A stretch of 64,000 nucleotides of DNA. Origin: Candidatus Hydrogenedentota bacterium (lineage in GTDB: Bacteria > Hydrogenedentota > Hydrogenedentia > Hydrogenedentales > JAEUWI01). Location: assembly GCA_016182605.1 (NCBI GenBank), contig JACPGE010000004.1, positions 1,402 to 65,401 on the forward strand, read 5' to 3'. Made by a program: the position numbers and the translations under genes. A model generated the notes under the pieces. That model was not told where the DNA came from, ran no database searches, and was given only the letters and a program-made list of their open reading frames with translations. Below, piece by piece: positions 3,046 through 56,478 of the stretch (the first letter of the stretch is position 1; the number at the start of each line of letters is the position of its first letter).

Positions 3046-4014
3046 TCAGCGCGGGGAAGGGGCAACAGCACTGCGCGGGCGGTCACCGGTAACCAGGGTG
3101 ATCGCCCCGGGGAGCACCTCCACCCGCGCGGGGAGGTAGCCCAGCATCTCGCCGTCCGCCTCGACCTTGATCGGAAAGGCGGATTCGGCCGTAATGCGGC
3201 GTCCACGCAGGTATTTCACCACGTCGGGACGCTTGTGCAGGCGCCCACGGTAGATCTTGGGCAGGTTGAGCAAGGCGTCCAACAGGCCCACGCTGCCGAT
3301 GTGGTAGATGTCGAAGAGGCCATTGTCCATCCGGGCGTGGGGCGCCACATGCATGCCGCCGCCATCGTAGCTGCCGTTGGCGATAATGAACTCCTTCAGG
3401 AGTCCGCCAATCTCCGCGTCATCGATCGCAAAACGCACTTCCTGATCCCGGTAGATGAGCAAGGAACTGAGCGTGCCCACGAGATATGATACAAAGCCGC
3501 CAAAGCGCTTCGTGGTGTGGTTTACCCGATCGACCACCTCGCCGCCGATGCCGATACGCGCAATGTTCTGAAAATACCAGGTCCGCTCGCTGCCGTCGGC
3601 CTGGGTACAGGTAATGCATCCCACATCGGTGCGCAAGACCCGGGCGGAACCGGCAAAGGCCGCCGCGTCAATCCCCTGCGGGATCCCCAGCGAGCGCGCC
3701 AGATCCGATCCGGTACCGAAAGGGATGACCGCCATTTCCGCATCGGGCTGAATGGGGAGTCCGCCTTCAAAGAAACCGTTCAGAACTTCGAAGTGCGTGC
3801 CATCGCCGCCCACACTGATTATACGGCCGCAACCCGCTCTCAGGGCCGTGCGCACGAGAATGCTGCCGTGCCCCGGCCCTTCCGTGCGCAAGAGTTGAAA
3901 GGCGCCGAGTTCTTTTTTCAGGCGCGCTTCCAAAACGGGCCAGTGCCGCCCGGCACGCCCCTCGGCCGCCTGTGGATTCACCACCACAGCCACTTCTTTG
4001 CCCGCTTGGATCAT
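3046..4014 (-). CDS. Diacylglycerol/lipid kinase catalytic-domain protein (YegS/BmrU-like)
   Basis: DAGK_cat motif GGDGTHFEVLNGF. Length is about 320 aa. Confidence 0.7.
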   Translation of the reverse strand: MIQAGKEVAVVVNPQAAEGRAGRHWPVLEARLKKELGAFQLLRTEGPGHGSILVRTALRAGCGRIISVGGDGTHFEVLNGFFEGGLPIQPDAEMAVIPFGTGSDLARSLGIPQGIDAAAFAGSARVLRTDVGCITCTQADGSERTWYFQNIARIGIGGEVVDRVNHTTKRFGGFVSYLVGTLSSLLIYRDQEVRFAIDDAEIGGLLKEFIIANGSYDGGGMHVAPHARMDNGLFDIYHIGSVGLLDALLNLPKIYRGRLHKRPDVVKYLRGRRITAESAFPIKVEADGEMLGYLPARVEVLPGAITLVTGDRPRSAVAPSPR

Positions 4015-4035: not shown

Positions 4036-5466
4036 TTAAACGCGCACATCGGAGTGGGCCGAATCGTAGCCTGCATTCCGCGCGAGGATCGGGTCGATCT
4101 CCGCCGCGATGAACTCCACCACCTGCATCGGCGCGCGGCCCACGAACTGGCGCAGGTCCAGCTCCGCGTCGATCTCGGCGCGGCTCATGCCAATCGCCGG
4201 ATCCGCCGCAAGCCGATCCAGGAGATCGTTGTCGAGCCCGTGCTCTTTCACCTGCGCCGCCGCCGCGTGGGAGTGGGTGCGGATCACCTCGTGCAATTCC
4301 TGCCGGTCCCCGCCGCGCTTCACCCCGGCCATGATGATGTTTTCCGTGGCCATGAACGGCAGTTCCGCCCAGAGATGGCGCTCGATCACTTTCGGGTAGA
4401 CCGCCGGCGCCTCCATCACGTTCAGGTAGAGATTGAGTGCGCCGTCCGCGGCGAGAAAGGCCTCGGGAAGCGACAAACGCCGAATCGCGGAATCGTCCAG
4501 GGTCCGTTCGAACCATTGAATCGCCGAGGTGAACTGACTGTGCAGGGGAGAGACCATGAGAAAACGCGCGAGCGCACAGGCCCGTTCGCAGCGCATGGGA
4601 TTGCGCTTGTAGGCCATGGCGCTGCTGCCCACCTGGGTCGATTCGAAGGGTTCTTCAATCTCCTTTAGGTTTTGCAGGAGCCGCATGTCCGTCGCCCACT
4701 TGTGAATGGACTCGCCCAGCCCCGCGAGCGCACGGAGCACATATGTGTCCACCTTGCGCGGATAGGTCTGGCCGGTGACGCCATAAGAGGACTTGAAGCC
4801 CAGGCGCTCCGCCACCTTCTGATCCAGCAGGCGCACCTTGTCGGAGTCCCCGTCGAAAAGCGCCATGAACGACGCCTGGGTACCCGTCGTGCCTTTGACG
4901 CCGCGGCAGCGCAGGTTCGCAAGCACGCCTTCCAGATCGGCAATGTCCATCGCCAGATCCTGCGCCCACAGACACGCGCGCTTGCCCACTGTCACCACCT
5001 GGGCCGGCTGATAGTGCGTGAAACCGAGCGTGGGGAGGTCCTTGTATTCCAGCGCGAAGGCCTTCAGGCGCGCGAGCACCGCCACCGCCTTCCGAAGCAG
5101 CATCTCCAAGCCTTCCCGCATCACGATCAGGTCGGTATTGTCGCCCACGTAGCAGCTCGTTGCGCCGAGATGGATGATGGGTTTGGCCTTCGGCGCGATG
5201 TCGCCCAGCGCGTGGATGTGCGCCATCACGTCGTGACGCGTCTGCTTCTCGTAGCGGTTCGCCGCCTCAAAATCGATGTCTTCCAGATGCGCGCGCAACT
5301 CGGCGATCTGTTCGCCGGTGATGGGAAGCCCCAGCTCTTGCTCGGCCTCTGCCAGCGCCAGCCAGCACCGCCGCCACGTGGAAAACTTCTTTTGCGCGCT
5401 CCACAGCGCCGCCATCTCTTTCGTGGCAAAACGCTCCACCAGCGGGGACACGTATTCCGTCGTCAT
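4036..5466 (-). CDS. purB: Adenylosuccinate lyase
   Basis: Fumarate-lyase signature [11 protein letters not shown]. The N-terminus [13 protein letters not shown]...W matches the B. subtilis-type PurB. Start was moved to the internal ATG at 5466. Confidence 0.9.
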
Positions 5467-32828: not shown

Positions 32829-33069
32829 AAACTTCCCTTTCTAACGCCAGGATCGGAACAGTTCAGGCCCGGACTCGCCGGGTTAACGCTGTTCATAGTG
32901 CGTCCGCACCGGTCATGGCTCATGCGCCATGTACCGGAGAATTACATCATCACCATGGGATCCCACAAACGCTTCGACTTGTCATTGGCTCCACATCCCC
33001 CTTAATCCCCCTTCGAAGGGGGACTAAGGGGGATGTGGGCCACCAATTGCATTTCTCGTCAACGGCCCC

Positions 33070-33318
33070 TCAGCCAACTTCCAACACGCAGAGCACATCG
33101 CCCACTGTCACCTCGTCCCCCTCCGAAACGCGGTATTCCATCAGCGTGCCGGACTCCGGACTTGGAACGACGAATGCCGCCTTGTCCGTCGTCAATTCCA
33201 GCAGGTCGTCTCCCGCTTTCAGGGCCGCTCCCGCTTTCTGCAGCCAGAAGGCCACCACGCCCTTCGTCACTGCGTCATCATCGTCCCCCAGGCTCGGCAA
33301 ATTCACCTCAATCCGCAT
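33070..33318 (-). CDS. Stand-alone lipoyl-attachment domain protein (about 82 aa)
   Basis: MRIEVNLPSLGDD...ELTTDKAAFVVPSPESG has the lipoyl-lysine TDKA motif in a classic E2-lipoyl-domain context. Its start overlaps the lipA stop by 11 nt. Confidence 0.5.
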   Translation of the reverse strand: MRIEVNLPSLGDDDDAVTKGVVAFWLQKAGAALKAGDDLLELTTDKAAFVVPSPESGTLMEYRVSEGDEVTVGDVLCVLEVG

Positions 33319-34216
33319 GCTGTTCCGCTCCTGACGTTTGCAGCCGTTCCCGGCCAAATTCCGACTGCAGCAGCGCCTCCGAACGGTAGGAACTGCGTAC
33401 AAAGGGCCCCGCCACCGCGAACGAAAAACCCATGTCCCGCGCCATGGATTCATACCGTGTGAAGATCTCCGGCGGAATGAACGCCTCCACGTCCTGATGC
33501 TTCGGCGTCGGCTGCAAATACTGCCCCATGCTCACCGCATCGCAACCCGCCACCAACAGGTCATGCAAGGTCTCCTGGATGTCCGCCTCCGTCTCGCCGC
33601 AGCCCAGCATGAAGGAAGACTTCACAAAGCCGCGCCCTATGCGCGCCCGGGCAATGCGCAACACCTCCAAAGAGAGGTCATAGCTGAATCGGCGATCCCG
33701 AAGCTTCGGGAATATGCGGCGCACGGTCTCTATGTTGTGGCTGAAAATCTCCGGCTTCGCCGCTACAATAAGTTCAATCGCCGGTACATCCCCCACGAAA
33801 TCCTGTACCAGTACTTCCTGCGTCGTGCCGGGAGAGAGCCGCTTGATCGCACGGATCGTCGCCGCAATGTGCCCTGCACCGCCGTCCGGAAGATCGTCCC
33901 GCGTCACAGAGGTCAGCACCGCGTGCCGCAGCCCCAGCCGGCGCACCGCCTCCGCCACCTTCTCCGGCTCGTCCGGGTCGGGCGCCATCGGCTTGCCGCT
34001 GTTCACCGCGCAGTAGGTGCAATGGCGCGTGCACGTGTTCCCCAGTACCATGAAGGTCGCCGTGCGGCGGCTCCAACACTCCGACTGGTTCGGACAATGC
34101 GCGCTCTGGCACACCGTGTGCAGATCCATCCCGTTCAGGAGATCCTTCACTTCGCGGAACGCCTTGCCCGACGGCCACGGACGCCGAATCCAGGTGGGGA
34201 ATTGATTTAAAGCCAT
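33308..34216 (-). CDS. lipA: Lipoyl synthase
   Basis: Radical-SAM and auxiliary cluster cysteines: CQSAHCPNQSEC...CTRHCTYCAV. Confidence 0.9.
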   Translation of the reverse strand: MALNQFPTWIRRPWPSGKAFREVKDLLNGMDLHTVCQSAHCPNQSECWSRRTATFMVLGNTCTRHCTYCAVNSGKPMAPDPDEPEKVAEAVRRLGLRHAVLTSVTRDDLPDGGAGHIAATIRAIKRLSPGTTQEVLVQDFVGDVPAIELIVAAKPEIFSHNIETVRRIFPKLRDRRFSYDLSLEVLRIARARIGRGFVKSSFMLGCGETEADIQETLHDLLVAGCDAVSMGQYLQPTPKHQDVEAFIPPEIFTRYESMARDMGFSFAVAGPFVRSSYRSEALLQSEFGRERLQTSGAEQHAD

Positions 34217-34469
34217 GGTGCTAAACTCGAATTGGTACTGGGGTTAGGGACACGACGCCGGAAATCGCGCCCATTATAGCACGCCCGTATGCGCCCTTAA
34301 ACCCGGAACAGACCGTGCCGTCAGTCTCACGGTTGCCTGTAAACTTCGCCTCGATCCCCAACCTTGACCACGATAATAAGCGTAATCTGTATTTCACACC
34401 GTGGTGAAGCATGCGTGTCTGACACCCATGCCGAGGGATCTCTCCGTGCGCAGGAGTCAGGAACAGCCG

Positions 34470-34793
34470 CTATTCAGCAAACAATGCCGCCAGGCCTTGA
34501 AGCACAAGCTTCTGCGTGGCGGGCGCAATCCGGCCCAGGCGCTTCACGATCCGGGTTTTGTCCACCGTACGCAACTGGTCGAGAACAATCTGCCCGTCTT
34601 TCCCTTCGAACCGGCATGACACCCGTGTCGGGTAGTCCCTGCCTTTGCTCGTCATGGGCGCGATGAGGGCCGTTCTGATGTTCAGGTTCATTTCATCGGG
34701 AGAAACAACTAGACAAGGCCTCGTCTTCTGAATTTCGGCGCCAACCGTGGGATCAAGACAGACGAGGTAAACGTCGAAGCGCTTGACTACCAT
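34470..34793 (-). CDS. Type II toxin, MazF/PemK-family endoribonuclease
   Basis: MVVKRFDVYLVCLDPTVGAEIQKTRPCLVVSPDEMN is a characteristic PemK/MazF N-terminus. Confidence 0.75.
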   Translation of the reverse strand: MVVKRFDVYLVCLDPTVGAEIQKTRPCLVVSPDEMNLNIRTALIAPMTSKGRDYPTRVSCRFEGKDGQIVLDQLRTVDKTRIVKRLGRIAPATQKLVLQGLAALFAE

Positions 34794-35056
34794 TCCCACT
34801 CCGACTTCTCCCACTCGGTCAACATGATTTCCGGATCCAGCAGGCCGTCGTCACCGCGCTCTGCCATCAACTGAAATTGCTCTGCCCATCCCGCCCGCGG
34901 CCGGGTGCCCGAACGGATCACCAGATGATCGTCTCGCACTTCAAGCTCAATATCTTGCGACAGCTTCAACTCCTCAAGTATCGTCTTCGGGATACGAATG
35001 CCTTGGGAATTGCCTATCTGTATCAATCGCGTCTTGATAAAAGGGGACATTCGCAA
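34787..35056 (-). CDS. Type II antitoxin, MazE/AbrB-SpoVT family
   Basis: Swapped-hairpin motif LIQIGNSQGIRIPKTILEEL. Sits upstream of the toxin and overlaps it by 7 nt. Confidence 0.65.
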   Translation of the reverse strand: MRMSPFIKTRLIQIGNSQGIRIPKTILEELKLSQDIELEVRDDHLVIRSGTRPRAGWAEQFQLMAERGDDGLLDPEIMLTEWEKSEWEW

Positions 35057-35271
35057 ACTCCATCACCCGGATCGGGGTGTGAATACATTGTAATCACTTA
35101 TCAAATCTTCGTCAAGCCTTCGATTTGCCGCGCCACTGCCATATCGAAGGGCTTCGCACACCCTCTTTAACTCCTTCTATTCGTTGACCTTGTCGCGATC
35201 CCTATGCTAGAGTCACCCTGTTATGCTGACTTTATACCCGGGCTGCGGTACGTGCGCCCTGTGGAGAGCCG

Positions 35272-36201
35272 TTGTTGCATCTCAGCGAGCAAAAGCACCT
35301 CTCTCGTCCCAACGCCGAAATTCTCGTCGTGGGCGGGGGTAAAGGCGGCGTTGGCAAAACCTGCTTCTCCGTCAACATGGCGGTGGAGATTGCCCGGCGC
35401 GGCTGGCGCGTCATCCTGCTGGATGCCGACCTGAGCTGCTCCAATATTGAAACGGTGCTCGGCGTCAAATCCAACACCCGTCTGGATGACTTCTTCCACC
35501 AGCGCGGCACCAAGACCCTGGAATCCATCGTCTCGGACACCCCCTACGAGAACCTGCGGCTCATCCCCGGCACGACCGGGCTGCTCGATGTGGCCAACCC
35601 GCGCTATCAGCAGAAAGTGGCCCTCATCAGGGAGTTACGCAATCTCGACGCGGACCTCATTATCGTGGACCTGGACGCCGGCGCCCACCTGAACACCCTG
35701 GACTTCTTCCTGATGACCGAAACCAATGGGGTCTTGGTCATCACCCCCGAGCGCACGAGCATCGACAACGCCTTTAAGTTCTTGCGGGCAGCGCTGTTCC
35801 GCCGGATCGAGCGTTTTTATCAGTCCCCGGAGGTGGGCTACCTCCTCAAGCGCAATGAAACCCTCCACGACTTTATAGAATCTATCCAGAAAGCCGATTG
35901 TTTCGAGAAGGAGACCGGGGACCAGGTCTGCCAGGAACTCCGGGCCCTGGCGCGCTCTTTCCGGCCGCGGATTGTGGTGAGCAAGGCCAACAACGCCTAT
36001 GAGGCCAAGATTGCCGCCAATATCCTCGCCAAGTACGCGCGCCAACTGCTCCACATAGAACCGGACAGCTTGGGCTATGTATACTTCGACAAATACGTTT
36101 CCGATGCGGTGAACGCGGGCGTGCCCTTTGTGGTTGGCCGGCCCCACCTCACCATTTCACACTGCATCAAGGATATGGCGAACCGTTTGGGCTACTTTTA
36201 G
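35272..36201 (+). CDS. MinD/ParA-family P-loop ATPase
   Basis: Deviant Walker A GGGKGGVGKT. MinD/FlhG-like layout. Confidence 0.65.
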   Translation: MLHLSEQKHLSRPNAEILVVGGGKGGVGKTCFSVNMAVEIARRGWRVILLDADLSCSNIETVLGVKSNTRLDDFFHQRGTKTLESIVSDTPYENLRLIPGTTGLLDVANPRYQQKVALIRELRNLDADLIIVDLDAGAHLNTLDFFLMTETNGVLVITPERTSIDNAFKFLRAALFRRIERFYQSPEVGYLLKRNETLHDFIESIQKADCFEKETGDQVCQELRALARSFRPRIVVSKANNAYEAKIAANILAKYARQLLHIEPDSLGYVYFDKYVSDAVNAGVPFVVGRPHLTISHCIKDMANRLGYF

Positions 36202-36218
36202 GGAAGCGAGGCAAACCG

Positions 36219-36893
36219 ATGCCGACAGATCAAACACCCGACCAGAACAACCTTCAAACCGAAGTCGAACAGGACTTTGCCGAGCTGGAAAAAGCGGGCA
36301 AACGGGGCCTGCTGGGGCGCTTTAACACCCGTTTCAATGACGCGCTCCAGAACAGCCGCGGCACCGAGAGGCAACGCGATGCCGTGAAGGAGATCGCGGA
36401 GAGCCCCAACGTCAGCGCCGACGACCTCGCCATCCGCCGCGCACGGAATGTCAGCCTCCAGAAAATGGTTATACCAGAGGGTGTCATCATTGAAGGTTCC
36501 CTGACCGGCGGATCGGACACCGAAATATCGGGAAAAATTGAAGGCAATATCACGGTTGAAGGCCGGCTCTTCCTGGGCGCCAGCGCGCTGGTTTCCGGAA
36601 ATGTCCGGGCGGGCTCGTGCCAGGTGGAAGGCTTGGTCGAGGGCCGTGTCGAATGCAGCGACACCCTCGAACTCAGCAAGTCGGGACGCCTCAACGCCGA
36701 TGTCATTGCCGGAAAGCGAATAAACATTGCCGGCCAGGTGTATGGAAATGTGACGACACCAGGCGTGCTGCGCCTGGCCGAAGGTGGCCGTATCGAAGGC
36801 GACGTTCGGACGCGCAGCCTGACAATGGAAGAAGGGGCGACCCTCAACGGCCTCTGCGCCATGCGGGCCCCCGCACAAAGGAGTGCAAAGTAA
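36219..36893 (+). CDS. Bactofilin (DUF583) cytoskeletal protein with an about 80-aa N-terminal extension
   Basis: Repetitive beta-helical bactofilin core (ISGKIEGNITVEGRLFLGASALVSGNVRAGSCQVEGLVEGRVEC...). Confidence 0.75.
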   Translation: MPTDQTPDQNNLQTEVEQDFAELEKAGKRGLLGRFNTRFNDALQNSRGTERQRDAVKEIAESPNVSADDLAIRRARNVSLQKMVIPEGVIIEGSLTGGSDTEISGKIEGNITVEGRLFLGASALVSGNVRAGSCQVEGLVEGRVECSDTLELSKSGRLNADVIAGKRINIAGQVYGNVTTPGVLRLAEGGRIEGDVRTRSLTMEEGATLNGLCAMRAPAQRSAK

Positions 36894-37602
36894 CATTATG
36901 GGTATGTTTGACCCCATTGGATTGCTGGTTGGCTTGATCGGCTTTGCCATGGCCATGTTCGCCCAAGCGAAAGTGAAGAGCGCCTATGCCAAATGGTCAC
37001 AAGTCGGCGCCCGCTCGGGCATCACCGGGGCCGAAATCGCCAAGCGCATGATGTACGACAACAACATCGACGATGTGTCCCTGGAGTGCATCCCCGGAGA
37101 AATGACCGACCACTACGACCCCACGGCCAAGGTCGTGCGCCTCTCGGAGGCGACCTACAACGGCCGCAGCATTGCCGCGCTGGGCATCGCGGCCCACGAA
37201 ATTGGCCACGTGATCCAGCATGCCCAGGGTTACACGCCGTTGCAACTGCGCAGCTTCGTATACCCCGTGGCGAGTATCGGCTCCAACGCCGCCGTGCCCC
37301 TCATCATGATCGGCCTCGTCCTGTCCTACATGGGCGCATCCATGCCGTGGCTCATCTGGGCGGGCGTTTACCTCTTCGCCGCCGCGGTCGCCTTCACCTT
37401 CATCACCCTGCCGGTGGAATTCAACGCCAGCAGCCGCGCCCTCAAGGCCCTGGCGCATGGCGGCATTCTCCGGGAAGAGGAGATGGTGGGCGCAAAGAGC
37501 GTGCTCAACGCCGCGGCCCTGACCTATGTCGCCGCAGCCGCCGCAGCCGCACTGCAACTCATGCATTTCGTCATGATTGCCATGAACCAAGACCGCCGCT
37601 AG
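36883..37602 (+). CDS. YugP-family membrane zinc metallopeptidase
   Basis: HEIGH zinc motif, C-terminal TM helices, and overall YugP (Zn_peptidase_2) layout. Confidence 0.6.
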   Translation: MQSNIMGMFDPIGLLVGLIGFAMAMFAQAKVKSAYAKWSQVGARSGITGAEIAKRMMYDNNIDDVSLECIPGEMTDHYDPTAKVVRLSEATYNGRSIAALGIAAHEIGHVIQHAQGYTPLQLRSFVYPVASIGSNAAVPLIMIGLVLSYMGASMPWLIWAGVYLFAAAVAFTFITLPVEFNASSRALKALAHGGILREEEMVGAKSVLNAAALTYVAAAAAAALQLMHFVMIAMNQDRR

Positions 37603-37615
37603 AGAAACGATCTCA

Positions 37616-38761
37616 ATGAAAGCACCGCGTGCAGGCCGGACCCGGACTTCCTGGTCCGGCCTCACCTTTTTACTGTTCTTCATTTCCACAGTATCCCCCC
37701 TTTGGGCACAAAACGAAGCTTTCCGCATCCGGGGGGTCGGCGCCGCCGAAGGCAGCAACTTCGATGTGCGCCGCAGCGCCCTCCAGGCCGCCTTTCAAAA
37801 CGCCATCCAACAGGTGCTCGACGTGAAGATCGCCGAGCCCGACCTCGCCACGAACCGCCGCATTCTGCGTTACGCCGAGCGCTACATCCCCAATTACACC
37901 GTGGTGGAACAAAGCCAGGGCGCCGAGGGCGTCACCATCTCCATCGATGCCGAGGTCGATCAAGAGACCCTGGAATACGACATCTCCGCCTTGATCCTGC
38001 CACGCCTCACCACACCCCCGTCGGTACAGTTCATCCTCGCCGAAGACCACGACGGCACGGCCCGTCTCGCCACGCGCAACTCGGGGACCGCACAGACGAT
38101 CTTCGACGCGGGGCTCGAAAACCTCAAGGTGGAGGGCCACAGCCCGGAAGAACTCCTCGATATGTTCTCTGAGGCGACACTGCTGGAGGCCATCTACGGC
38201 GACGTGGCCGCAGCGAGTCAGATCGCACGCGCAGCCCTCACCGACACCGTGGTCATGGGCCGCATCTCCGTGAGCGCGCTGGCTGCCTCTCCTGGCTCGC
38301 CCATGCTCGAGCACACCGCCCAGGCCGCCCTGCGCGTGTTCCGCACCTCAGACGGCAAAATGCTCGACGACATTACTTCCAGGGCGGTCGTTCTGAGCCG
38401 CCCGGAGATCTCGGGCAGTGACCAGGCCATCGAAGACGCCTGCAAGAAGCTCATCGGACCCACGGTGGTCGCCGCGGTGATGACCGTCGTGAGTGATCAG
38501 CCGAAAGACCGGGTGATCATCACCGTGGAGACCCCGCAGAGCCAGGAGAACTGGACCTCCATCAAAGACGCCCTGACCCAGGACGCCGCGGTATTCTCGG
38601 TCGAGGATCTCTTCTTCACGGAAAAACGCGCGCGCCTCCGCCTCGCCTACGACGGCCCCATGGGCCACCTCGCCGATCTGCTCTCCGGGCTGCCCGTCCA
38701 TGGCGGCACACTCACGGTCGACCGCGCCGTGGGCCGGAATATGACGGTAAGCCTGCACTGA
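37616..38761 (+). CDS. Hypothetical secreted protein
   Basis: Signal peptide (LTFLLFFISTVSPLWAQ). No recognisable motifs. Adjacent to the bactofilin/peptidase genes on the same strand. Confidence 0.4.
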   Translation: MKAPRAGRTRTSWSGLTFLLFFISTVSPLWAQNEAFRIRGVGAAEGSNFDVRRSALQAAFQNAIQQVLDVKIAEPDLATNRRILRYAERYIPNYTVVEQSQGAEGVTISIDAEVDQETLEYDISALILPRLTTPPSVQFILAEDHDGTARLATRNSGTAQTIFDAGLENLKVEGHSPEELLDMFSEATLLEAIYGDVAAASQIARAALTDTVVMGRISVSALAASPGSPMLEHTAQAALRVFRTSDGKMLDDITSRAVVLSRPEISGSDQAIEDACKKLIGPTVVAAVMTVVSDQPKDRVIITVETPQSQENWTSIKDALTQDAAVFSVEDLFFTEKRARLRLAYDGPMGHLADLLSGLPVHGGTLTVDRAVGRNMTVSLH

Positions 38762-38836
38762 GGGCGCCAAGATCCGGCAGAAAAAATGAGTTCAAATAGG
38801 TCCTATACGTCTTATATGACCTATATTCCCATGGCA

Positions 38837-38876
38837 ATGCGCAGGGCCCTTCCCACACTTTGGGAAAGACCCCGCA
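38837..38876. repeat. 40-bp direct repeat, left copy, flanking the hicBA cassette. Contains the palindrome TTCCCACACTTTGGGAA.
   Basis: atgcgcagggcccttcccacactttgggaaagaccccgca, which differs at 2 of 40 positions from the copy at 39404..39443. Confidence 0.8.
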
Positions 38877-38929
38877 CTTGTTAGTCGTTCCAGTCTGCCG
38901 TGTTATACTCCCTATCTGAGGATCAAGGC

Positions 38930-39169
38930 ATGCGCTTTTATACGTTCGAGATCGTGATTGAGAAGGAACCCGAAGACGAAGGCTATTTTGCCTATAGTCC
39001 CGGGTTGCCGGGCTGCTTCAGCAATGGATCGACGATCGAAGAAGCCAAGCGGAACATTCGTGAGGCCGTTCAGCAACACCTGCTGACCCTGACTTCCCGG
39101 GGCGAACCCATCCTCCACAGTGAAAACATGGTTCACGTGGAAGAACTTACCGTGGGACTTCCCGATTGA
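38930..39169 (+). CDS. hicB: HicB-family antitoxin
   Basis: MRFYTFEIVIEKEPEDEGYFAYSPGLPGCFSNGSTIEEAKRNIREA is a typical HicB/UPF0150 fold. A TATACT -10-like element lies about 25 nt upstream. Confidence 0.7.
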   Translation: MRFYTFEIVIEKEPEDEGYFAYSPGLPGCFSNGSTIEEAKRNIREAVQQHLLTLTSRGEPILHSENMVHVEELTVGLPD

Positions 39170-39393
39170 CCCGCATGCCCCAAGTTACGGCCCGGGAATT
39201 GATCGTGTTCCTATGCGCCCAGGGTTTCATAGAAGATCGTCAATCCGGGAGCCATCTCACCCTGTGGCACGAAACCAGGCGCATTTCCGTGACCGTGCCC
39301 GTTCATACGGGGTGTGACGTGGGACGCGGCTTGGCGATTCGAATCTTGAAAGACGCCGGATTCAGCGTCGAAGACTTTCTCCAACTGCGTTAA
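39166..39393 (+). CDS. hicA: HicA-family mRNA interferase toxin
   Basis: ARELIVFLCAQGFIEDRQSGSHLTLWH is a YcfA/HicA motif. 4-nt overlap with hicB. Confidence 0.75.
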   Translation: MTRMPQVTARELIVFLCAQGFIEDRQSGSHLTLWHETRRISVTVPVHTGCDVGRGLAIRILKDAGFSVEDFLQLR

Positions 39394-39403
39394 TTCGAAA
39401 AAA

Positions 39404-39443
39404 ATGCGCGGGGCCCTTCCCACACTTTGGGAAAGACCCCGCG
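39404..39443. repeat. 40-bp direct repeat, right copy, flanking the hicBA cassette
   Basis: atgcgcggggcccttcccacactttgggaaagaccccgcg. Confidence 0.8.
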
Positions 39444-39477
39444 ATTTTTGCTATCGGCTGGCAAACGCCCAATCCGC

Positions 39478-41574
<2,097 letters not shown>

Positions 41575-43912: not shown

Positions 43913-44551
43913 GTGCCGGTGCCCTGCGCGAAAGGGAGTGTCGATCCATTGAAAACCAATTATGTCCTCGTCGATTTTGAGAATGTGCAGCCCACGGATC
44001 TGGGCCTGCTCAAGAACGGTCCCTTCCGGGTCAAGCTTTTCCTCGGGCCCAACCAGGCCAAGGTCCCCGTGGCAATTGCCGCCGCCTTGCAGGCCTTGGG
44101 CGGCAACGCAGAATACATTATCCTCGAAAAGTCGGGCGCCAACGCCCTCGACTTTCACATCGCGTACTATATCGGCGCGCTCTCGGCGGAAGAGCCCACA
44201 GCCGTCTACAACATCATTTCCCGGGACACCGGATTCGACCCGTTGATCAAGCATCTCAAACACAAGGCGATCGCCGTGCACCGCTCGGCCCGCATCGCGG
44301 ACATGCCCTGTTTCAAGCGTGACGCGCCCGAAGCGAACGGGAGCCAACTGGACAAGACGATAGAGTTCCTGGTGGGCCGCAAAGGGGCCGTGCCCAAGAC
44401 CCAGAAGTCGCTCTTGCGCTCCCTGCACGCCCACTTCAAGAAGGAAATGAACGAGGAGCAACTGACGTTTCTGTTCGATACCTTGTGCGAGCGCGGCATC
44501 GTGACCGTCGACGGCGCCAAAGTCTCCTATGCCTTGCCCCAGGAAGACTGA
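43913..44551 (+). CDS. Hypothetical protein with a PIN/NYN-like N-terminal region and a wHTH-like C-terminal region
   Basis: YVLVDFENVQP resembles the first strand of NYN/LabA-type domains. No further support. Confidence 0.3.
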   Translation: MPVPCAKGSVDPLKTNYVLVDFENVQPTDLGLLKNGPFRVKLFLGPNQAKVPVAIAAALQALGGNAEYIILEKSGANALDFHIAYYIGALSAEEPTAVYNIISRDTGFDPLIKHLKHKAIAVHRSARIADMPCFKRDAPEANGSQLDKTIEFLVGRKGAVPKTQKSLLRSLHAHFKKEMNEEQLTFLFDTLCERGIVTVDGAKVSYALPQED

Positions 44552-49556: not shown

Positions 49557-49865
49557 ATGAAATGTGCTCAGCGCGAAGCCGGTGCTGGAGCAGCCCAGGG
49601 GGGCGGCCAGGTTCCCGAGGGCCTCGCCGGCATGCCCCTGATTGCGATCCGGCTTGAGGGGGACCGTGTGCTTGCGCAGTCAACGGACGGCAAGTACACG
49701 CGTATGGATGCCGACGGCACGTTGAGCGAGATGACCGAGGCGCCCATGATCAAGCAAGACCCCGCCGTCGCCGCGTTTGGCGATGCAGCGCGGGCCGTGG
49801 CGAGCGACAAACTCCTCATGACCGCGACAATAAAAGGCCGTTTGCTCCACTTTCTGTCCCATTGA
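49557..49865 (+). pseudogene. Gene fragment paralogous to residues about 65-135 of the downstream gene at 54397..56478
   Basis: About 205 nt (49600..49803) are roughly 88% identical in DNA to 54592..54798. Homology is lost on both sides. Confidence 0.55.
49600..49803. repeat. About 205-bp direct repeat, left copy (its partner is 54592..54798)
   Basis: Direct nucleotide comparison: ccaggttcccgagggcctcgccggcatgcccctg... in both copies. Confidence 0.8.
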
Positions 49866-49983: not shown

Positions 49984-52900
49984 GTGGCAATGACTCAACA
50001 GCCGGACACACTACATGCATTAATCGGGCAATGGCGCGCGAAACACAACAAGCGCGCGATGGGAGGCATATGGGCGCTCTCCGGTTTTTCCTTTCAAATC
50101 GCGATCTTCTTGGTTCATTTTTTTGATACCGTGGGGCGGGAAAACGAAGACCCCCAACAACTCCCCGAATTCGAGCAACTTTCCGATCTCCTCTGCCCAC
50201 AGGACAGACGTTATCTCCTGGTGCAAGTCAAGCGCACGCTGAACAGGACCAGACTCAAAGAGGCGTTGAAAGAGTTCTACACCATCCTGGCGCTCTCCCG
50301 GGAAGAAACCCCCACCCTTACGAGCCAGCTACGTTTCCAAGTGGCCTGTAAGTACCGCCCGAGCCCGAGTTTGACCCCTTCCGACATCACGATGGAGGAA
50401 GTCGTGGACAATGGTGACCCTGAAACTTGGCAATTGCTTATCAGGGCCTTTGATGAAGAAAATCCCATCATTGAAGAGCCGGATCCCCTGGACAAGCTGT
50501 ACGCCGTTCTGTGGACTCATGGGATTAAGAACAGGGCCGGACTCATTGAGCATTGTGCCGGCCGGTTGCTGGAAAGCTTTGGCAACCCAGGCCCCAACGT
50601 TAGGCATAGCCTGCTGCGCGATCTTGAAAGCCTGTTTCATGACGCTCCCAGACGGGAAGGATGGACCAGCGAATTCAAACTTCTCTTGGGGAACGACGTA
50701 GCCCTCGATCCCAGTCATGAGGGCTCCCTGGAGGTCCTGACGGGGCAGTTACCCCGGCTCGAACACCTCCGGAAGGGCATGTTTCGCGAGCGCAAGGCGC
50801 TATTCAGCAATCTCTGGGAGCAGTTTAACTCATGGCAGACGCAACTCGAAGAGCAAGACCTCGGAGACGAGACCCCCATCTTTTGGATCAGCGGCCGCTC
50901 CGGCGAAGGCAAGTCTGTCCTGCTACTCCAACTTGTCGCGGAATGTATCCGCAAGCATGGCGATATCCCCCTCCTTCACCTGAAATCAGGGGAAGACCTG
51001 CCTCTCTTCCTGGACCACGCACCTAAACGCACCAGTATGAACGACCAAGTATTCGGGCGCTACTTCGCCGTAATTGACGATATCTACGACCTGCGCAATC
51101 GCGATGACTGGGCGGATCGTATTCGCCGGGCGCGTGCTTTAGAGATTCCCCCGGTCGCCATCATCACCTGCGGGCCTACGGAACAGCGGGAACAGTTCGA
51201 AAACAGTCTGAAAGATGAATTCAGGGTCGTTCATTTTGAGGTCCCCCTCCTGGACCAATCTGAAATGGAGGATTTTATTGAATGGTACGAGAATCGGACC
51301 GGCAAGGTGTGTGAGCGGTCGGTATTCTCGGAGCAAAACCCGCTCCTGGTCTTGTTTATGTTCGAATTGGCCCGCGGCGAAAAGATTTCGGCCTTTGCCA
51401 AGCGCATTAAGAGGCGCCTGGAAGCCATGCAAATATTTGAGGCGGCCCGTGCCATTGCGGCCACGTGGGCCCTTTACATCGACGCCCCCATTGCATTGCT
51501 GGAAGACCAGGAAAAACGCGACGCCCTGGACCGCCTCTGCAAGGACGACCAGCTTCATTTCCGCATATCCTATTCAGAGGATGGAAGCACGGAGGAAGGC
51601 GTCCGTTTCGCCCATGCCCACATAGCCTGGTTGCTCTACACAGAATGGGCAGAACTACCTCCAACGCCCTTCGCAAAATCGTGGGCTCGCGACCTGGACC
51701 GGAGCTTGGGCCTTTGGGAATCCCAAGGAAACTACGCTGGCGCCAGCATCTTGTTGCACCGGGCTTTCCGCGAAACACGGCTCGCAAACGGTCTTTACGT
51801 GGAGCTGAATACCGATCATTGCCAGTTGCTCCAGGAATTGTACCGGCTGCATTGTCAGAGGAATGCTAATCAGCCCTTGCAAACCCTGATGCCGCGTTGG
51901 CTGGAAATGTTGTGCAAGTCCCGTGGACTGGTACTCAAACCCGACCCAGTGCTCGCCACGCTCAAAGCGATGGAAGACGAATCCGCAGTCAGTTCCGTAC
52001 AGGGCTACACCGTTGGCTGGCTTTGGCGTCTAACTGCTCTGCGCCCCCCAACCGAACAGGGCCGCATAAGAAATATGGTCCAAAGATTTCTGGACCAATT
52101 CCCGGAAGCTCCAGGCTCAGGGACCGTAGTAGGCCAGATCTCTAAATCGAACCAATCCGATCAGCAAATTCACCAATGGGTATTGAGCTGGATCCAAGAA
52201 AACCCATTGAACCCACAGACCGTTCTTACGCTCTCGCCCATGCTCGCATCTCATTCAGGAAATCATGAATTAATAGATGTAGCCAAGACTTGGCTATCCA
52301 AATACCCTGAACTACCTCAAGCACATTGGCTGATAGCAAGGCTGGTGGCGTGCAATCCAGGGGACGAGATCGTCAAGAATATTGCCACAGATTGGTTGAA
52401 GGGATTCCCCGAACATCCGCAGGCATATCAAGTAATTACTGCCCTTGTACGCGCGCGGCCTGGTGAAAAAAATGTGGTTGATATCGCGAAAAAGTGGCTG
52501 AACGACTTCCCCAAACATCTTCATGCATACAACTTGATCGCGGCACTCGTGGCGGCGAACCAAGTAAACGAGGACATCATTGGAATCGCCACGGAATGGC
52601 TACAGAACTTCCCCGATCATCCACAGGCATACATCTTGATCGCGACACTCGTGGCGGCGAACCAAGTAAACGAGGACATCATTGGAATTGCCACGCAATG
52701 GCTACAAGACTTCCCCGATCATCCACAGGGATACCAAGTGGTGGCGGCGCTCGTGGCGGCAAATCAGGGGGACGAGGACATCATTGGAATTGCCACACAA
52801 TGGCTAAAGGACTTCCCCGATCATCCACAGGCATACATCTTGATCGCGACACTCGTGGCGGCGAACCAAGTAAACGAGGACATCATTGGAATCGCCACGG

Positions 52901-53853
52901 AATGGCTACAGAACTTCCCCGATCATCCACAGGGATACCAAGTGGTGGCGGCGCTCGTGGCGGCAAATCAGGGGGACGAGGGCATCAATAGAATTGCCAC
53001 ACAATGGCTAAAGGACTTCCCTGAACAGCCACAGGCATACCACGTAGTAGCGGCGCTCGTGGCGGCGAACCAGGGAGACGAAAGCACCAAAATATTCGCC
53101 ACCGAGTGGCTGGACGAAAACTCCAATCATCCGCAGATCCATAAAGTGATCGTGACCTTGATCTCAGCGTGGCCCGATGATCCAATGGTCGAAAAGACCG
53201 CCACCGAATGGTTGTCCAACAACGAAAACCATGCGGGATATGTCGAAATGCTCTCCACAATCATCGCTCGAAGCGTTGGCGCCGAGAAGTGGCTGCGCTG
53301 CGGTGAAGCCTATCTCGCTCGGCCCAATTGCCGAAACCCAGAGGGAATCATTTCCGTCCTGGTAACGGCCGGAAAAGCCAATGCAGACGCCGTTGACCGC
53401 GCCCTTGACTACTTCGACGCTCCTTCAACACCGAAAAAATCCGCCAGCTTCGTCAGAATCCAGCTATCGAAGGCGTTGGCCAATAATCTAGAGAACACGG
53501 TAGCCTACCTCTACGGCGTACTGAATGAAGAACGCAATCGCTTCATATGCGATACTCTGGCATATGGATTGGCCCAGAATCCAGAGGGATTCGCAGATTT
53601 CATCGAGGTCCATGCGCCCGACCTCATGTCCGAGTATGAGCAACGCATACTCTGCAAACTGATTCTCCTTAAGCAAAGTACAGACGCATTCGATGAATGG
53701 GTTGCCACCTGGCTCGTACGAAACTACCGTCGCCCAGGCTATGGTGGCGTCCTGCAAGCCATCCGCAATCGTCCGGCCCTGTGGGGGCGGCTGATCGAAC
53801 TCAACGCCCTCAATTCCGAAATCATTTGGGACTACGAACACCCGCCGATCTGA
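49984..53853 (+). CDS. Large P-loop NTPase with an unassigned about 290-aa N-terminal domain and a C-terminal array of 34-aa helical repeats (STAND-like architecture; candidate defence or signalling protein)
   Basis: Walker A WISGRSGEGKSVLLLQL (about aa 303). Walker B FAVIDDIYD (about aa 361). The C-terminus has about 10 tandem 34-aa units (IIGIATEWLQNFPDHPQAYILIATLVAANQVNED). The N-terminal domain (MGGIWALSGFSFQIAIF...DLLCPQDRRYLLVQVKRT) matches no family I can name. Confidence 0.6.
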   Translation: MAMTQQPDTLHALIGQWRAKHNKRAMGGIWALSGFSFQIAIFLVHFFDTVGRENEDPQQLPEFEQLSDLLCPQDRRYLLVQVKRTLNRTRLKEALKEFYTILALSREETPTLTSQLRFQVACKYRPSPSLTPSDITMEEVVDNGDPETWQLLIRAFDEENPIIEEPDPLDKLYAVLWTHGIKNRAGLIEHCAGRLLESFGNPGPNVRHSLLRDLESLFHDAPRREGWTSEFKLLLGNDVALDPSHEGSLEVLTGQLPRLEHLRKGMFRERKALFSNLWEQFNSWQTQLEEQDLGDETPIFWISGRSGEGKSVLLLQLVAECIRKHGDIPLLHLKSGEDLPLFLDHAPKRTSMNDQVFGRYFAVIDDIYDLRNRDDWADRIRRARALEIPPVAIITCGPTEQREQFENSLKDEFRVVHFEVPLLDQSEMEDFIEWYENRTGKVCERSVFSEQNPLLVLFMFELARGEKISAFAKRIKRRLEAMQIFEAARAIAATWALYIDAPIALLEDQEKRDALDRLCKDDQLHFRISYSEDGSTEEGVRFAHAHIAWLLYTEWAELPPTPFAKSWARDLDRSLGLWESQGNYAGASILLHRAFRETRLANGLYVELNTDHCQLLQELYRLHCQRNANQPLQTLMPRWLEMLCKSRGLVLKPDPVLATLKAMEDESAVSSVQGYTVGWLWRLTALRPPTEQGRIRNMVQRFLDQFPEAPGSGTVVGQISKSNQSDQQIHQWVLSWIQENPLNPQTVLTLSPMLASHSGNHELIDVAKTWLSKYPELPQAHWLIARLVACNPGDEIVKNIATDWLKGFPEHPQAYQVITALVRARPGEKNVVDIAKKWLNDFPKHLHAYNLIAALVAANQVNEDIIGIATEWLQNFPDHPQAYILIATLVAANQVNEDIIGIATQWLQDFPDHPQGYQVVAALVAANQGDEDIIGIATQWLKDFPDHPQAYILIATLVAANQVNEDIIGIATEWLQNFPDHPQGYQVVAALVAANQGDEGINRIATQWLKDFPEQPQAYHVVAALVAANQGDESTKIFATEWLDENSNHPQIHKVIVTLISAWPDDPMVEKTATEWLSNNENHAGYVEMLSTIIARSVGAEKWLRCGEAYLARPNCRNPEGIISVLVTAGKANADAVDRALDYFDAPSTPKKSASFVRIQLSKALANNLENTVAYLYGVLNEERNRFICDTLAYGLAQNPEGFADFIEVHAPDLMSEYEQRILCKLILLKQSTDAFDEWVATWLVRNYRRPGYGGVLQAIRNRPALWGRLIELNALNSEIIWDYEHPPI
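52265..53280. repeat. Tandem 102-bp (34-aa) intragenic repeats. Central copies are near-identical in DNA.
   Basis: For example, the unit starting at 52570 recurs exactly at 52876 (306 bp = 3 units away). The repetition creates artefactual ORFs in alternate frames. Confidence 0.85.
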
Positions 53854-54396: not shown

Positions 54397-56478
54397 ATGC
54401 TGCCATTCGCCTGTCGGCTTCTCACCATCACACTGCTCATCACTGCCACCGCCGCTGCGGAAGATCTCGGCGAACTTCCGTTTCCGTTGTGGAACGTTGT
54501 GCCGCTTCTGAATGACGTGGACGATCCCCGCGCGGCCTTCCGCCGCCCCGAAGGGTCGCTGCCCATCGTCGTGCCGCCGTTTGTGGAGCATGTGCGCGTC
54601 CAGGTTCCCGAGGGCCTCGCCGGCATGCCCCTGGTTGCGATCCGGCTGGAGGGAGATAGCGTGGTGGCGCAATCGAAGGAGCGCAACTATACGCGCATGG
54701 ATGCCGACAGCACGCTAAGCGAGATGACCGAGGCGCCCATGATCAAGCAGGACCCCGCCGTCGCCGCGTTTGGCGATGCGGCGCGGGCCGTGGCGAACGT
54801 GGGGGGGAGCATGTGGCTTGCGACGGCCACCGGGCTCTACGTGCGGGCGGCCGGCGCAAGGGACTTTGCGCGCTTCGAGACCTACGGGGTGGGCGGGCCG
54901 CTCTCGACGGACATCCGCGATCTCGCGGTCGATTCGAAAGGCACGCTCTGGATCGCGACGTCTCTTGGACTCAATGCGCTGGACAGCAGCGGCGCCTGGC
55001 GCGCCATTCGCGGTCGCGACGGCCTGCCCCAGGAAGACCTGACTGCGATCGCGATCGACGGCGAGGATCGGCTCTGGATCGGCTCCACCGCGGGACTCAT
55101 TCTCTATGTTCCGAACGCCACGGACCGCCAGTGGTACTACCGCGCCGGCGAACGCTACGTGCCCAACGACCTGATTCACGATGTGGCGGTGAGCGCGGAC
55201 GGCCACAGGGTCTACACCGCCACGGAGGGTGGGCTTGGCCGGCTCGACCTGATTGGCACGACCCTGTTGGAACGCGCGGAGAGGATCGAGAAGCGGGTGA
55301 ACGAACGGCACCGCCGCTTCGGGCTGGTGGCGGCGTGCACGCTTGACGATCCCTGGAACTCCACCGCGCACACGATAGGCGACAACGACAACGACGGTCT
55401 GTGGACTTCGTACCATGTGGCGGCCATGGCACTGGCCTATGCGGTAACCCGGGACGCAGCCGCGAAGGCTTCGGCCAAGGAGAGCATGGACGCCCTGTAT
55501 ATGCTGCAAGACGCCTCGGGGATTCCCGGCCTGGTGGCGCGCAGTGTGGTCACCCTGGAAGAGGGCAAGAGCAAAGACAAGCAATGGCGCCTCACCCCGG
55601 ACGGGACCAAGTATTGGAAGAGCGACACCTCCTCGGATGAGATCGACGGCCACTACATGGCGTTTTATACGTACTGGGAACACATTGCGAAGCAGGACCC
55701 GGAAGAAGCGGCGATCTGCGTTGAACACGTGCGCAATCTGACCGACTACATCATCAAGAACGATTACCAGCTCATCGACTGGGACGGCAAGCGCACCCGG
55801 TGGGGCTTCTGGTCGCCCGAATTGCTCAACGATCAGCCGCAACATTTCACCGAAACGGGGCTGAACAGCCTGCAAATGCTGTCCTTCCTCAAGACAGCGC
55901 ACTACATCACCGGGGATGCCAAGTACCAGAAGCACTACATGAAATTGATCAAGGAACACCACTACCTCGCCAACGTACTGCTGGAGAAGAAGGTTTACCC
56001 CGATATGGACAACCACTCCGACAACCAGCTTGCCTACGTTGCGTGGTACCCCATACTCCAGGCGGAGCAGGACCCGGAGATCCGCGAGGCGCTCCACGCG
56101 GCGGTGCGGCGGCACTACAAGTGCCTTTCTCTCGATCGGACGGCCTTCTTCTACTACGTGACGGCCACCATCGATCCCGACTACGTGGACCTCGAGGCTG
56201 CCACCCATGAGCTGACCCTATTCCCGACGGATCGCCGTCAATGGGCCTACAAGAACAGTCATCGCGCCGACGTGGTGTTCAATCCGCGCGTCGACCGATT
56301 CGGCAAGCGCCAACTCATGACGGTGTTGCCCCTGGATGAGCGGGGCATCGACAAGTGGAACAGCAACGTCTATCTTCCCGACGAAGGGGGCAGTGGCAAC
56401 CACGAGGACGACGGCGCCGCGTATCTGTTGCCCTACTGGATGGGGCGCTACCACGGCTTCATCAAAGAAGCGGAATAG
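54397..56478 (+). CDS. Secreted protein with an N-terminal beta-propeller-like (two-component-regulator-propeller-like) region and a C-terminal (alpha/alpha)6-glycosidase-like region
   Basis: Signal peptide MLPFACRLLTITLLITATAAA. Reg_prop-like repeats (GTLWIATSLGLNALD, DRLWIGSTAGLILY). The C-terminal glycosidase assignment is weak. Confidence 0.4.
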   Translation: MLPFACRLLTITLLITATAAAEDLGELPFPLWNVVPLLNDVDDPRAAFRRPEGSLPIVVPPFVEHVRVQVPEGLAGMPLVAIRLEGDSVVAQSKERNYTRMDADSTLSEMTEAPMIKQDPAVAAFGDAARAVANVGGSMWLATATGLYVRAAGARDFARFETYGVGGPLSTDIRDLAVDSKGTLWIATSLGLNALDSSGAWRAIRGRDGLPQEDLTAIAIDGEDRLWIGSTAGLILYVPNATDRQWYYRAGERYVPNDLIHDVAVSADGHRVYTATEGGLGRLDLIGTTLLERAERIEKRVNERHRRFGLVAACTLDDPWNSTAHTIGDNDNDGLWTSYHVAAMALAYAVTRDAAAKASAKESMDALYMLQDASGIPGLVARSVVTLEEGKSKDKQWRLTPDGTKYWKSDTSSDEIDGHYMAFYTYWEHIAKQDPEEAAICVEHVRNLTDYIIKNDYQLIDWDGKRTRWGFWSPELLNDQPQHFTETGLNSLQMLSFLKTAHYITGDAKYQKHYMKLIKEHHYLANVLLEKKVYPDMDNHSDNQLAYVAWYPILQAEQDPEIREALHAAVRRHYKCLSLDRTAFFYYVTATIDPDYVDLEAATHELTLFPTDRRQWAYKNSHRADVVFNPRVDRFGKRQLMTVLPLDERGIDKWNSNVYLPDEGGSGNHEDDGAAYLLPYWMGRYHGFIKEAE
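54592..54798. repeat. About 205-bp direct repeat, right copy, inside the 5' coding region of 54397..56478
   Basis: See the left copy at 49600..49803. Confidence 0.8.

Follow-up and report, generated by a model that had tools for sequence, protein, structure and literature searches.

The spread of chromosomal toxin-antitoxin pairs across distant phyla without a linked transposase or integrase has so far been poorly explained, and the hicBA pair that lies beside dnaK in a 64-kb stretch of Candidatus Hydrogenedentota DNA (contig JACPGE010000004.1, the whole stretch being termed the window below) raises the question of how such a pair came to stand between two near-identical 40-nt direct repeats. 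The hicB-hicA pair is intact between these repeats, with hicB as the first gene, and it is, on balance, somewhat more probable than improbable that hicBA represents a horizontally acquired toxin-antitoxin cassette inserted with long target duplication of the dnaK terminator. The flanking repeats themselves are most likely two copies of dnaK's own terminator hairpin, which was duplicated at the insertion of hicBA. The cassette as such is an ordinary toxin-antitoxin module, and the point of interest resides in a footprint of long target duplication that recurs around a cargo without DNA-cutting activity. The features on which the argument relies are given below.

37616..38761, plus strand: upstream orphan gene, 381 aa, annotated as 'hypothetical protein HYV27_00755'; GC content at third codon positions (GC3) 0.82
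38762..38835: AT-rich stretch left of the left repeat, 74 nt, GC 0.45, the lowest among the intergenic pieces of the window
38836..38882: left repeat copy, 40 nt at 38/40 and 47 nt at 43/47, with the hairpin at 38840-38876
38883..38929, plus strand: cassette leader, with a candidate extended -10 element TGTTATACT (38901-38909) and a ribosome-binding site GAGGA (38918-38922) located 7 nt before the hicB ATG
38930..39169, plus strand: hicB, 79-aa short HicB-type antitoxin with the HicA-binding N-terminal domain only
39166..39393, plus strand: hicA, 75-aa HicA-type mRNA-interferase toxin, TTG start, 4-nt overlap (TTGA) with the hicB stop
39394..39402: presumed right end of the insert, TTCGAAAAA, of which five As plus the opening AA of the repeat make the A7 that yields the U7 tail of dnaK
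39403..39449: right repeat copy, with the hairpin at 39407-39443, a 16-bp stem, A7 before and T5 after
39478..41427, minus strand: dnaK, 649 aa, PF00012 match at 6e-259, GC3 0.81, stop at 39478-39480

The flanking repeats and their hairpin

The two 40-mers, ATGCGCAGGGCCCTTCCCACACTTTGGGAAAGACCCCGCA (38837-38876) on the left and ATGCGCGGGGCCCTTCCCACACTTTGGGAAAGACCCCGCG (39404-39443) on the right, are identical at 38 of 40 positions, exactly where the preliminary description of this DNA had placed them and with the two mismatches it had counted, namely 38843 A versus 39410 G and 38876 A versus 39443 G, the left copy having A and the right copy G both times. An identical 32-nt core, GGGCCCTTCCCACACTTTGGGAAAGACCCCGC, is shared by both copies, which occurs twice in the window, still twice when up to three mismatches are tolerated, and was not encountered in 100 shuffles. 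A repeat search extended the pair to 47 nt (38836-38882 and 39403-39449, 43/47, 91% identity) at a spacing of 567, while low-stringency blastn with a word size of 7 detected no third copy in the 64 kb. Among the 89 one-gene and two-gene units of the window, the hicBA units gave a flanking-direct-repeat score of 37 and all the others scored at most 13; since no other unit possesses comparable flanking repeats, the repeats are specific to hicBA. Moreover, the left junction is independently confirmed by the Logan assembly L001 (run SRR12113422), which is identical to window positions 33009-38873 and ends inside the shared core, as is expected of a k=31 assembler that meets a 32-nt repeat.

The internal palindrome TTCCCA-CACTT-TGGGAA, to which attention had been drawn at the outset, is indeed present in each copy, but it constitutes merely the tip of a longer stem of 16-17 bp (38840-38876 and 39407-39443) closed by the 5-nt loop. 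The right hairpin folds at -34.8 kcal/mol on the minus strand and -26.8 kcal/mol on the plus strand (z-scores of -6.6 and -4.8, respectively), and the left one at -33.7 and -21.1 kcal/mol. The weaker fold of the plus strand results from two G-U pairs of the minus strand, which turn into A-C mismatches on the plus strand, and both differences between the left and right copies preserve the minus-strand pairing, as G-U.

The right copy, which lies 28 nt beyond the dnaK stop and thereby bears out the described position of the cassette directly 3' of this minus-strand gene, was called as an intrinsic terminator on the minus strand by a terminator scan, with 16 pairs (11 of them G-C) and the tail CATTTTTTTC. 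The plus-strand sequence following the hairpin is ATTTTT, which would provide a U5 tail for hicA, and the right copy thus reads as a two-way intrinsic terminator serving dnaK (minus strand, U7) and hicA (plus strand, U5). The stem is perfect on the minus strand only, which argues that it was shaped for the dnaK transcript and that the hairpin evolved there. In the left copy, no U-tract exists on the minus strand and a weak ACUUGUU follows on the plus strand; this copy is presumed to be the terminator duplicate, which probably insulates hicBA from read-through. A canonical hairpin with a U6 tract is carried by the convergent gene pair at 63.1 kb, indicating that terminator signals of this kind are in use by the organism, and the Rfam comparison returned a sub-threshold match to a plastid 3'-UTR hairpin alone (E 0.15).

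The right copy resembles the bidirectional Rho-independent terminators of convergent genes in its GC-rich 16-bp stem, its 5-nt loop, the A-tract upstream and T-tract downstream, and its location between hicA and dnaK. In contrast with such terminators, two copies exist here, 567 bp apart, and the left one is devoid of a U-tract on the dnaK strand. For annotation, the consequence is that the palindrome at this locus should be recorded as the dnaK terminator and not as a new repeat family.

The hicB-hicA pair

The assignment of the enclosed genes to a hicB-hicA toxin-antitoxin cassette, as made in the preliminary description, is upheld by profile matches above the curated cut-offs for both proteins. 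HicB matches PF15919 (5.5e-11, 43 bits against a cut-off of 27, profile positions 1-61 of 123) and PF21748 (1.5e-7, 31.7 bits against a cut-off of 27.3), and its relatives in the PDB, 2DSY (Thermus TTHA0281), 6G1C, 6G1N, and 4P78, are matched in their N-terminal part only. A C-terminal DNA-binding domain of the ribbon-helix-helix (RHH) or helix-turn-helix (HTH) type is absent from this HicB, which ends at residue 79 and whose matches span the N-terminal halves of HicBs of 142-143 aa. The protein is accordingly best classed, from its sequence, as a short HicB/UPF0150-type antitoxin, and autorepression of the operon by HicB is improbable because it lacks a DNA-binding domain.

HicA matches PF07927 over profile positions 1-57 of 58 (1e-15, 58 bits, cut-off 27), and the PDB entry 1WHZ was retrieved as its relative (1.9e-5). 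The N-terminus MxRMPQVT is conserved in an alignment of 38 close HicA homologues, which indicates that hicA starts at the TTG at 39166, as in the NCBI annotation (the 75-aa form, P0122). Exact-protein look-ups of HicB, of a 72-aa form of HicA, and of DnaK gave no match, the NCBI form of HicA being the 75-aa protein from TTG. The segment GSHLTLWH is present, in which H30 is invariant and G28 and S29 are at least 90% conserved among the 38 homologues; following published HicA work, we take the histidine of the GSH motif (H30 here) to be catalytic for the RNase activity.

The unit can be regarded as a self-contained type II toxin-antitoxin cassette. It should operate like other HicAB systems: HicA (75 aa) is predicted to be a ribosome-independent mRNA-cleaving toxin, which HicB (79 aa) would neutralise by direct binding, and the two genes would be translationally coupled. 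With the canonical HicAB systems of E. coli K-12, Yersinia pestis (HicA3-HicB3, PDB 4P78), and Burkholderia pseudomallei (PDB 6G26), the pair shares the dsRNA-binding-like fold family and GSH histidine of HicA as well as the N-terminal partial RNase-H-like domain by which HicB binds HicA. Unlike in those systems, the antitoxin gene comes first and HicB, at 79 aa, has no RHH or HTH domain, its nearest counterpart being the UPF0150-type TTHA0281 of Thermus (2DSY). No promoter was called by a consensus promoter scan of the leader; TGTTATACT, read by eye from the sequence, marks a possible hicBA promoter.

Foreign origin of the cassette

The cassette and its flanks are AT-richer than their surroundings, as had been noticed initially, with GC contents of 0.485-0.585 versus 0.61-0.68. 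At the codon level, GC3 amounts to 0.63 in hicB and 0.66 in hicA versus 0.81-0.83 in dnaK, the orphan gene, and a peptidase gene. More than 1,300 homologues of HicA were found, the best of which are 76-86% identical and occur in Phycisphaerae, Planctomycetes, Acidobacteria, Terriglobia, and other Hydrogenedentes, while DnaK, which ranks among the best-conserved proteins of bacteria, matches the DnaK of the NCBI metagenome-assembled genome exactly and its next relatives are only ~70% identical over the full length, at best about 73%. The low GC3, together with HicA identities of 76-86% across phyla when DnaK reaches only ~70% to its nearest relatives, marks the cassette as foreign and makes its acquisition by horizontal transfer very probable. 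No relatives were detected in the viral contigs of IMG/VR, by either single-protein or alignment queries, or in the plasmids of PLSDB.

Many close HicA homologues reside on contigs of ~500-600 nt, which is about the size of the cassette; these short contigs may reflect assembly breaks at cassette borders, caused by repeats or multiple contexts, or equally minimum-length cut-offs.

A proposed insertion with long target duplication

Long target duplication at insertion is known from restriction-modification units (Nobusato et al. 2000, Gene 259:99; Furuta, Abe and Kobayashi 2010, NAR 38:2428, PMC2853133). Such units have no gene for mobility, and the direct repeats on either side of them, longer than 30 bp, consist of unique host sequence (PMC2853133). 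Reported examples include a 46-bp repeat (44/46) overlapping the 3' end of a gene in H. influenzae and a 47/47 repeat in T. thermophilus; the repeats often span the stop codon of the neighbouring gene, which stays intact, and the driver suggested by Furuta et al. is double-strand DNA breakage by the restriction enzyme (PMC2853133).

The hicBA locus is compatible with this pattern in several respects. The insert comprises 520-527 bp with hicB and hicA only, lacks a mobility gene, and is far below the 20 kb that Furuta et al. (2010) set as an upper size; the direct duplication measures 40 nt (38/40) or 47 nt (43/47) here and 51/51 in a second locus treated below (L028-L033), exceeding the 30 bp adopted by the same authors. 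A further criterion of theirs is uniqueness of the repeat in the genome; the 64-kb window holds no additional copy, and the GTDB genomes and JGI metagenomes, which do not include the source genome, none. Both cases concern a small post-segregational-killing pair of foreign composition without mobility gene or terminal inverted repeats, and in both the repeats lie at the 3' end of a neighbouring gene, which is left intact, at lengths of 40-47 and 51 nt here versus 46 and 47 bp there. They differ in that the cargo here is a HicA RNase toxin with its antitoxin, to which DNA breakage by a restriction enzyme cannot apply, and in that the restriction-modification insertions are defined by an empty site, while that of hicBA is a reconstructed one.

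According to the duplication model, the hairpin was present beforehand as a host terminator and became duplicated as the cassette went in. The cassette would have landed in the 3'-3' gap between the orphan gene and dnaK, which are convergent in the reconstructed ancestral state, and would have duplicated ~40-47 bp of host DNA that by chance included the whole terminator hairpin, so that each convergent host gene would keep one hairpin copy and the cassette would be bracketed by direct repeats. The process would require neither a transposase or integrase nor terminal inverted repeats or a recombination core site; the duplication would probably have been made by the break-repair or replication machinery of the host, through fill-in of nicks staggered by ~40-50 nt or through template switching, a molecular mechanism that we infer from the footprint. 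Subsequently, the right copy would terminate both dnaK and hicBA, the left copy would shield hicBA from read-through of the upstream gene, and the repeats would allow excision by RecA-type recombination or slippage, or amplification, of the 567-bp unit.

The empty site reconstructed by joining 38762-38835 to 39403-39480 is a plausible convergent spacer of 152 nt. The ancestral left flank of the hairpin would have been CCCATGGC under the duplication model, in which the As of TTCGAAAAA derive from the insert, or TTCGAAAAA if the right copy and the A-tract were ancestral. Likewise, the AT-rich stretch 38762-38835, in which an AT-rich hairpin precedes a U-rich run on the minus strand and which stands out from the other intergenic regions of the window (GC 0.50-0.67), would be ancestral intergenic DNA under the model or, alternatively, imported. 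A retro-insertion, suggested by the poly-A at the insert end, was dropped as an explanation, the second locus having no A-run there.

Related hicBA loci

Exact HicA look-ups retrieved seven further hicBA contexts, giving eight with the window. In 7/8 contexts hicB encodes 79 aa and hicA 75 aa, and the two genes overlap by 4 nt, the exception being the L034 group with a 78-aa hicB, a 75-aa hicA, and no overlap. The GC content of the cassette is 3-9 points below that of its flanks in all eight contexts, and the cassette is located between convergent genes in four of the seven distinct contexts (the window counted and L016-L023 taken as one). DNA homology between contexts begins ~15 nt ahead of the hicB ATG and ceases where hicA ends, and neither conserved cassette ends nor terminal inverted repeats were recognised in the comparison of contexts. 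Since the homology ends at the borders of the open reading frames (ORFs), the repeats are not carried by the element.

A second repeat-flanked cassette is contained in L028-L033, which represent six assemblies from ENA and JGI, two of them built with k=141; the population is found under ENA ERZ27247591 and JGI 3300032163, 3300032069, 3300032118, and 3300031862. It is flanked by a perfect 51-nt direct repeat (51/51, 3597-3647 and 4243-4293), the right copy of which forms the last 17 codons of a convergent gene encoding a TIG/PPC-domain protein. In the left copy the reading frame and the final Asn codon are retained, the original TGA stop and then GC-rich hairpins follow, and this copy therefore looks like the fossil of the original 3' end of the TIG/PPC gene. 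This 51-nt repeat is not a strong palindrome and consists of host coding sequence, which points to the hairpin as incidental to the insertion in the window: what is duplicated appears to be whatever host sequence lies at the target. The ParA and bactofilin proteins of L028 are only 26-27% identical to those of the window, and the locus consequently belongs to a different organism. A shared synteny of the two loci, suggested by the bactofilin gene upstream in both, was rejected on the basis of the same identities, and the loci are independent.

In the L034 context, hicBA is flanked by two 129-aa ORFs, which proved to be unrelated.

Weighing the explanations

Several observations weigh against insertion with long target duplication. 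Flanking repeats were found in two of the eight contexts, the other six having none within 3.5 kb. A search for the empty site via the neighbouring genes yielded none, the orphan protein having no homologue and the nearest DnaK being ~70% identical; a seemingly close DnaK (P0003, 1213 bits) was rejected as a 939-aa protein that matches HSP70 twice and belongs to a dnaK-dnaJ operon of another organism. The model further implies that the insert end contributed five of the seven As behind the U-tract of dnaK, which leaves a poor ancestral tail (CAUUGCC) and an awkward coincidence. An unusually high AT content (GC 0.45) marks the 74 nt to the left of the left copy, and the import may thus reach beyond the repeat, in which case the repeats would be internal to it. 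In addition, the count of two copies refers to the 64 kb, and the number of 40-mers elsewhere in the genome could differ.

Both the coincidence of the As and the AT-richness of the 74 nt are accommodated by the import of a whole block consisting of the AT-rich leader, a hairpin, hicBA, the A-tract, a hairpin, and the T-tract, in which the repeats would be the insulator and terminator of the cassette itself, created by a duplication internal to the donor, and dnaK would borrow the right one. Here the right copy appears as a textbook symmetric terminator (A7-stem-T5) abutting the hicA stop, the 74 nt to the left as the most AT-rich intergenic DNA of the window find a natural place, and the coincidence of the five As disappears. 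The hairpin is, however, GC-rich and folds best on the sense strand of dnaK, which is antisense to hicBA; it is absent from 7/7 other hicBA contexts; nothing similar was retrieved from GTDB genomes or JGI metagenomes, even though close HicA homologues abound in JGI; and the repeats of L028 are host sequence. Import of the entire block is therefore deemed unlikely. We consider it quite improbable that the 40-mer belongs to a multicopy family resembling repetitive extragenic palindromic (REP) elements or terminators, with the cassette placed between resident copies or delivered by homologous recombination between them. An imperfect GC-rich palindrome in an intergenic 3' region is indeed what REPs look like, and the portion of the genome examined is 64 kb; the members of a REP family usually lie a few kb to tens of kb apart, and this stretch holds two copies even at low stringency. 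Chance neighbours would not be expected to share 40 nt at 95% identity and then to diverge abruptly, the repeat of L028 is unique coding sequence, and the family was not found in other genomes or metagenomes: a degenerate hairpin pattern searched against 596 Gb of GTDB representative genomes and JGI metagenomes, neither of which includes the source genome, returned 13 matches, all of them unrelated palindromes. The preliminary description had offered two readings, a mobile or recombination-delivered cassette and an insertion between REP-like elements, and they fare differently: horizontal delivery is very probable from composition and the repeats most likely mark an insertion, whereas the REP-like reading is not supported, given the lack of further copies in the 64 kb and the unrelated palindromes that were all the pattern retrieved from GTDB and JGI.

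A palindromic intergenic repeat around a small toxin-antitoxin cassette also recalls REPs organised as bacterial interspersed mosaic elements (BIMEs), attC sites in clusters of attC sites lacking integron-integrases (CALINs), and pdif modules, which are distinguished from the present locus by its having two copies only, no attC or dif core, a length too short for attC, and no REP-associated tyrosine transposase (RAYT) or integrase found. Toxin-antitoxin cassettes are common in chromosomal integrons and pdif modules, and this, with the palindromic repeats and with the right junction of L028, which recreates the last codon and stop as att sites at gene 3' ends do, speaks for attL/attR sites made by a trans-encoded enzyme, be it an integron attC (CALIN), a Xer/dif module, or the att core of a tyrosine integrase. 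This explanation is nevertheless highly improbable and already largely refuted. Taking as criterion that R'' (RYYYAAC) and R' (GTTRRRY) cores frame an imperfect palindrome of ~55-140 nt in attC, both strands were free of such cores to ~60 nt around each copy, 38501-39800 held no R''...R' pair, and a 28-bp dif-like site with an ATAA...TTAT core was likewise without match in that interval; an integron-like recombination site was rejected on these grounds. The 40-47 nt fall below the attC range, no integrase was seen among the ORFs examined near the cassette and no tRNA or tmRNA, and the repeats of the two loci bear no relation to each other, each being confined to its own host, while the cassettes share nothing outside the ORFs. 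Finally, that the repeat is an assembly artefact, either a de Bruijn-graph loop or a chimera of two populations, could be suspected from the source being a metagenome-assembled genome and from the Logan contig breaking inside the repeat, and is scarcely credible: two positions separate the copies, whose flanks are also distinct; a second, independent assembly recovers the left junction; a graph path enters and leaves the cassette only if the shared k-mer truly flanks both sides; and the analogous 51-nt repeat recurs in six assemblies, among them two whose k of 141 far exceeds its length.

Implications for the mobility of addiction modules

A literature search found no report of long target duplication for a type II toxin-antitoxin pair, and the reviews found mention it for restriction-modification systems only. 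Two independent HicBA insertions with host duplications of 40-51 bp link toxin-antitoxin pairs to a footprint documented until now for restriction-modification units only, and argue against the footprint requiring a DNA-cutting cargo. The HicA toxin being an RNase, the insertion route cannot depend on DNA breakage by a restriction enzyme.

A wider proposal, which is put forward tentatively and must be considered doubtful, holds that the short-HicB/HicA subfamily, which is widespread, constitutes a selfish cassette of minimal size and has invaded chromosomes time and again where convergent genes end, via long target duplication, a general, host-driven route. If true, this route would be independent of restriction-enzyme breakage, operating through fill-in of widely staggered nicks or template switching, and would move addiction modules without transposase or integrase; meanwhile, repeats of 40-50 bp would permit excision as a circle of ~0.6 kb and re-insertion. 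If confirmed with empty sites, a gene pair that is small and foreign, stands between direct repeats over 30 bp long made of unique host sequence from a gene's 3' end, and is accompanied by no mobility gene would furnish a searchable signature, which could be utilized to trace addiction-module mobility in metagenomes.

Further observations in the window and in related contexts

The orphan-gene protein upstream of the cassette belongs to no Pfam family, and its sole database match is itself. A second toxin-antitoxin pair is situated 4 kb from hicBA, with mazF at 34470-34814 and mazE at 34787-35056 on the minus strand (GC3 0.67), placed between lipA and a ParA/MinD-like gene; no flanking direct repeat was detected for mazEF, the best score being 8 versus a shuffle maximum of 11. 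On the other side, 2.5 kb past dnaK, a 212-aa protein with a PIN7 domain (PF18475, 4e-27) is encoded at 43913-44551 on the plus strand, which may be a toxin-like nuclease. Further along, a 1289-aa ORF at 49984-53853 on the plus strand contains 102-nt (34-aa) tandem repeats at 52274-53185, for which Tandem Repeats Finder reported ~5.6 copies at 82% identity and a separate repeat search up to 7-9 degenerate copies. The GC3 of this ORF is too low for the host-like filter, which demanded a GC3 exceeding 0.70 and surpassing GC2 (the value at second codon positions) by 0.15 or more, and a 211-nt direct repeat (88% identity) lies on both sides of it, at 49596-49806 and 54589-54799.

Among the related contexts, the last 127 nt of the L034 contig repeat without mismatch a stretch that lies 80 nt downstream of hicA (3308-3434 and 5091-5217), which probably represents an overlap in a k=127 assembly graph and points to a cycle or variant path. 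A gene for a TacA1 antitoxin is located nearby in L034 (4664-4972). An 872-nt segment that begins 73 nt after hicA in L038 and L034 is missing from L040, and the region right of the cassette is accordingly polymorphic. In the L016-L023 context (Phycisphaerae / Planctomycetes SM23_25-like), the spacer between hicA and a convergent gene of 505 aa measures 59, 181, or 226 nt (4094-4274 in L016 and 3080-3305 in L018, versus 4229-4287 in L020), the extra DNA being composed of nested inverted repeats, GAAACTGTTTCAAAACC / GGTTTTGAAACGGTTTC and GGTGGCCTTCCCAGGCCACC / GGCGACCTGGGAAGGTCGCC, and resembling a small palindromic insertion beside the cassette. In L042, from an Acidobacteria metagenome-assembled genome, a degenerate repeat array of the form AAAACGAACCGGAG... 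with a spacing of 20-65 nt occupies 3527-3775, ~300 nt downstream of hicBA.

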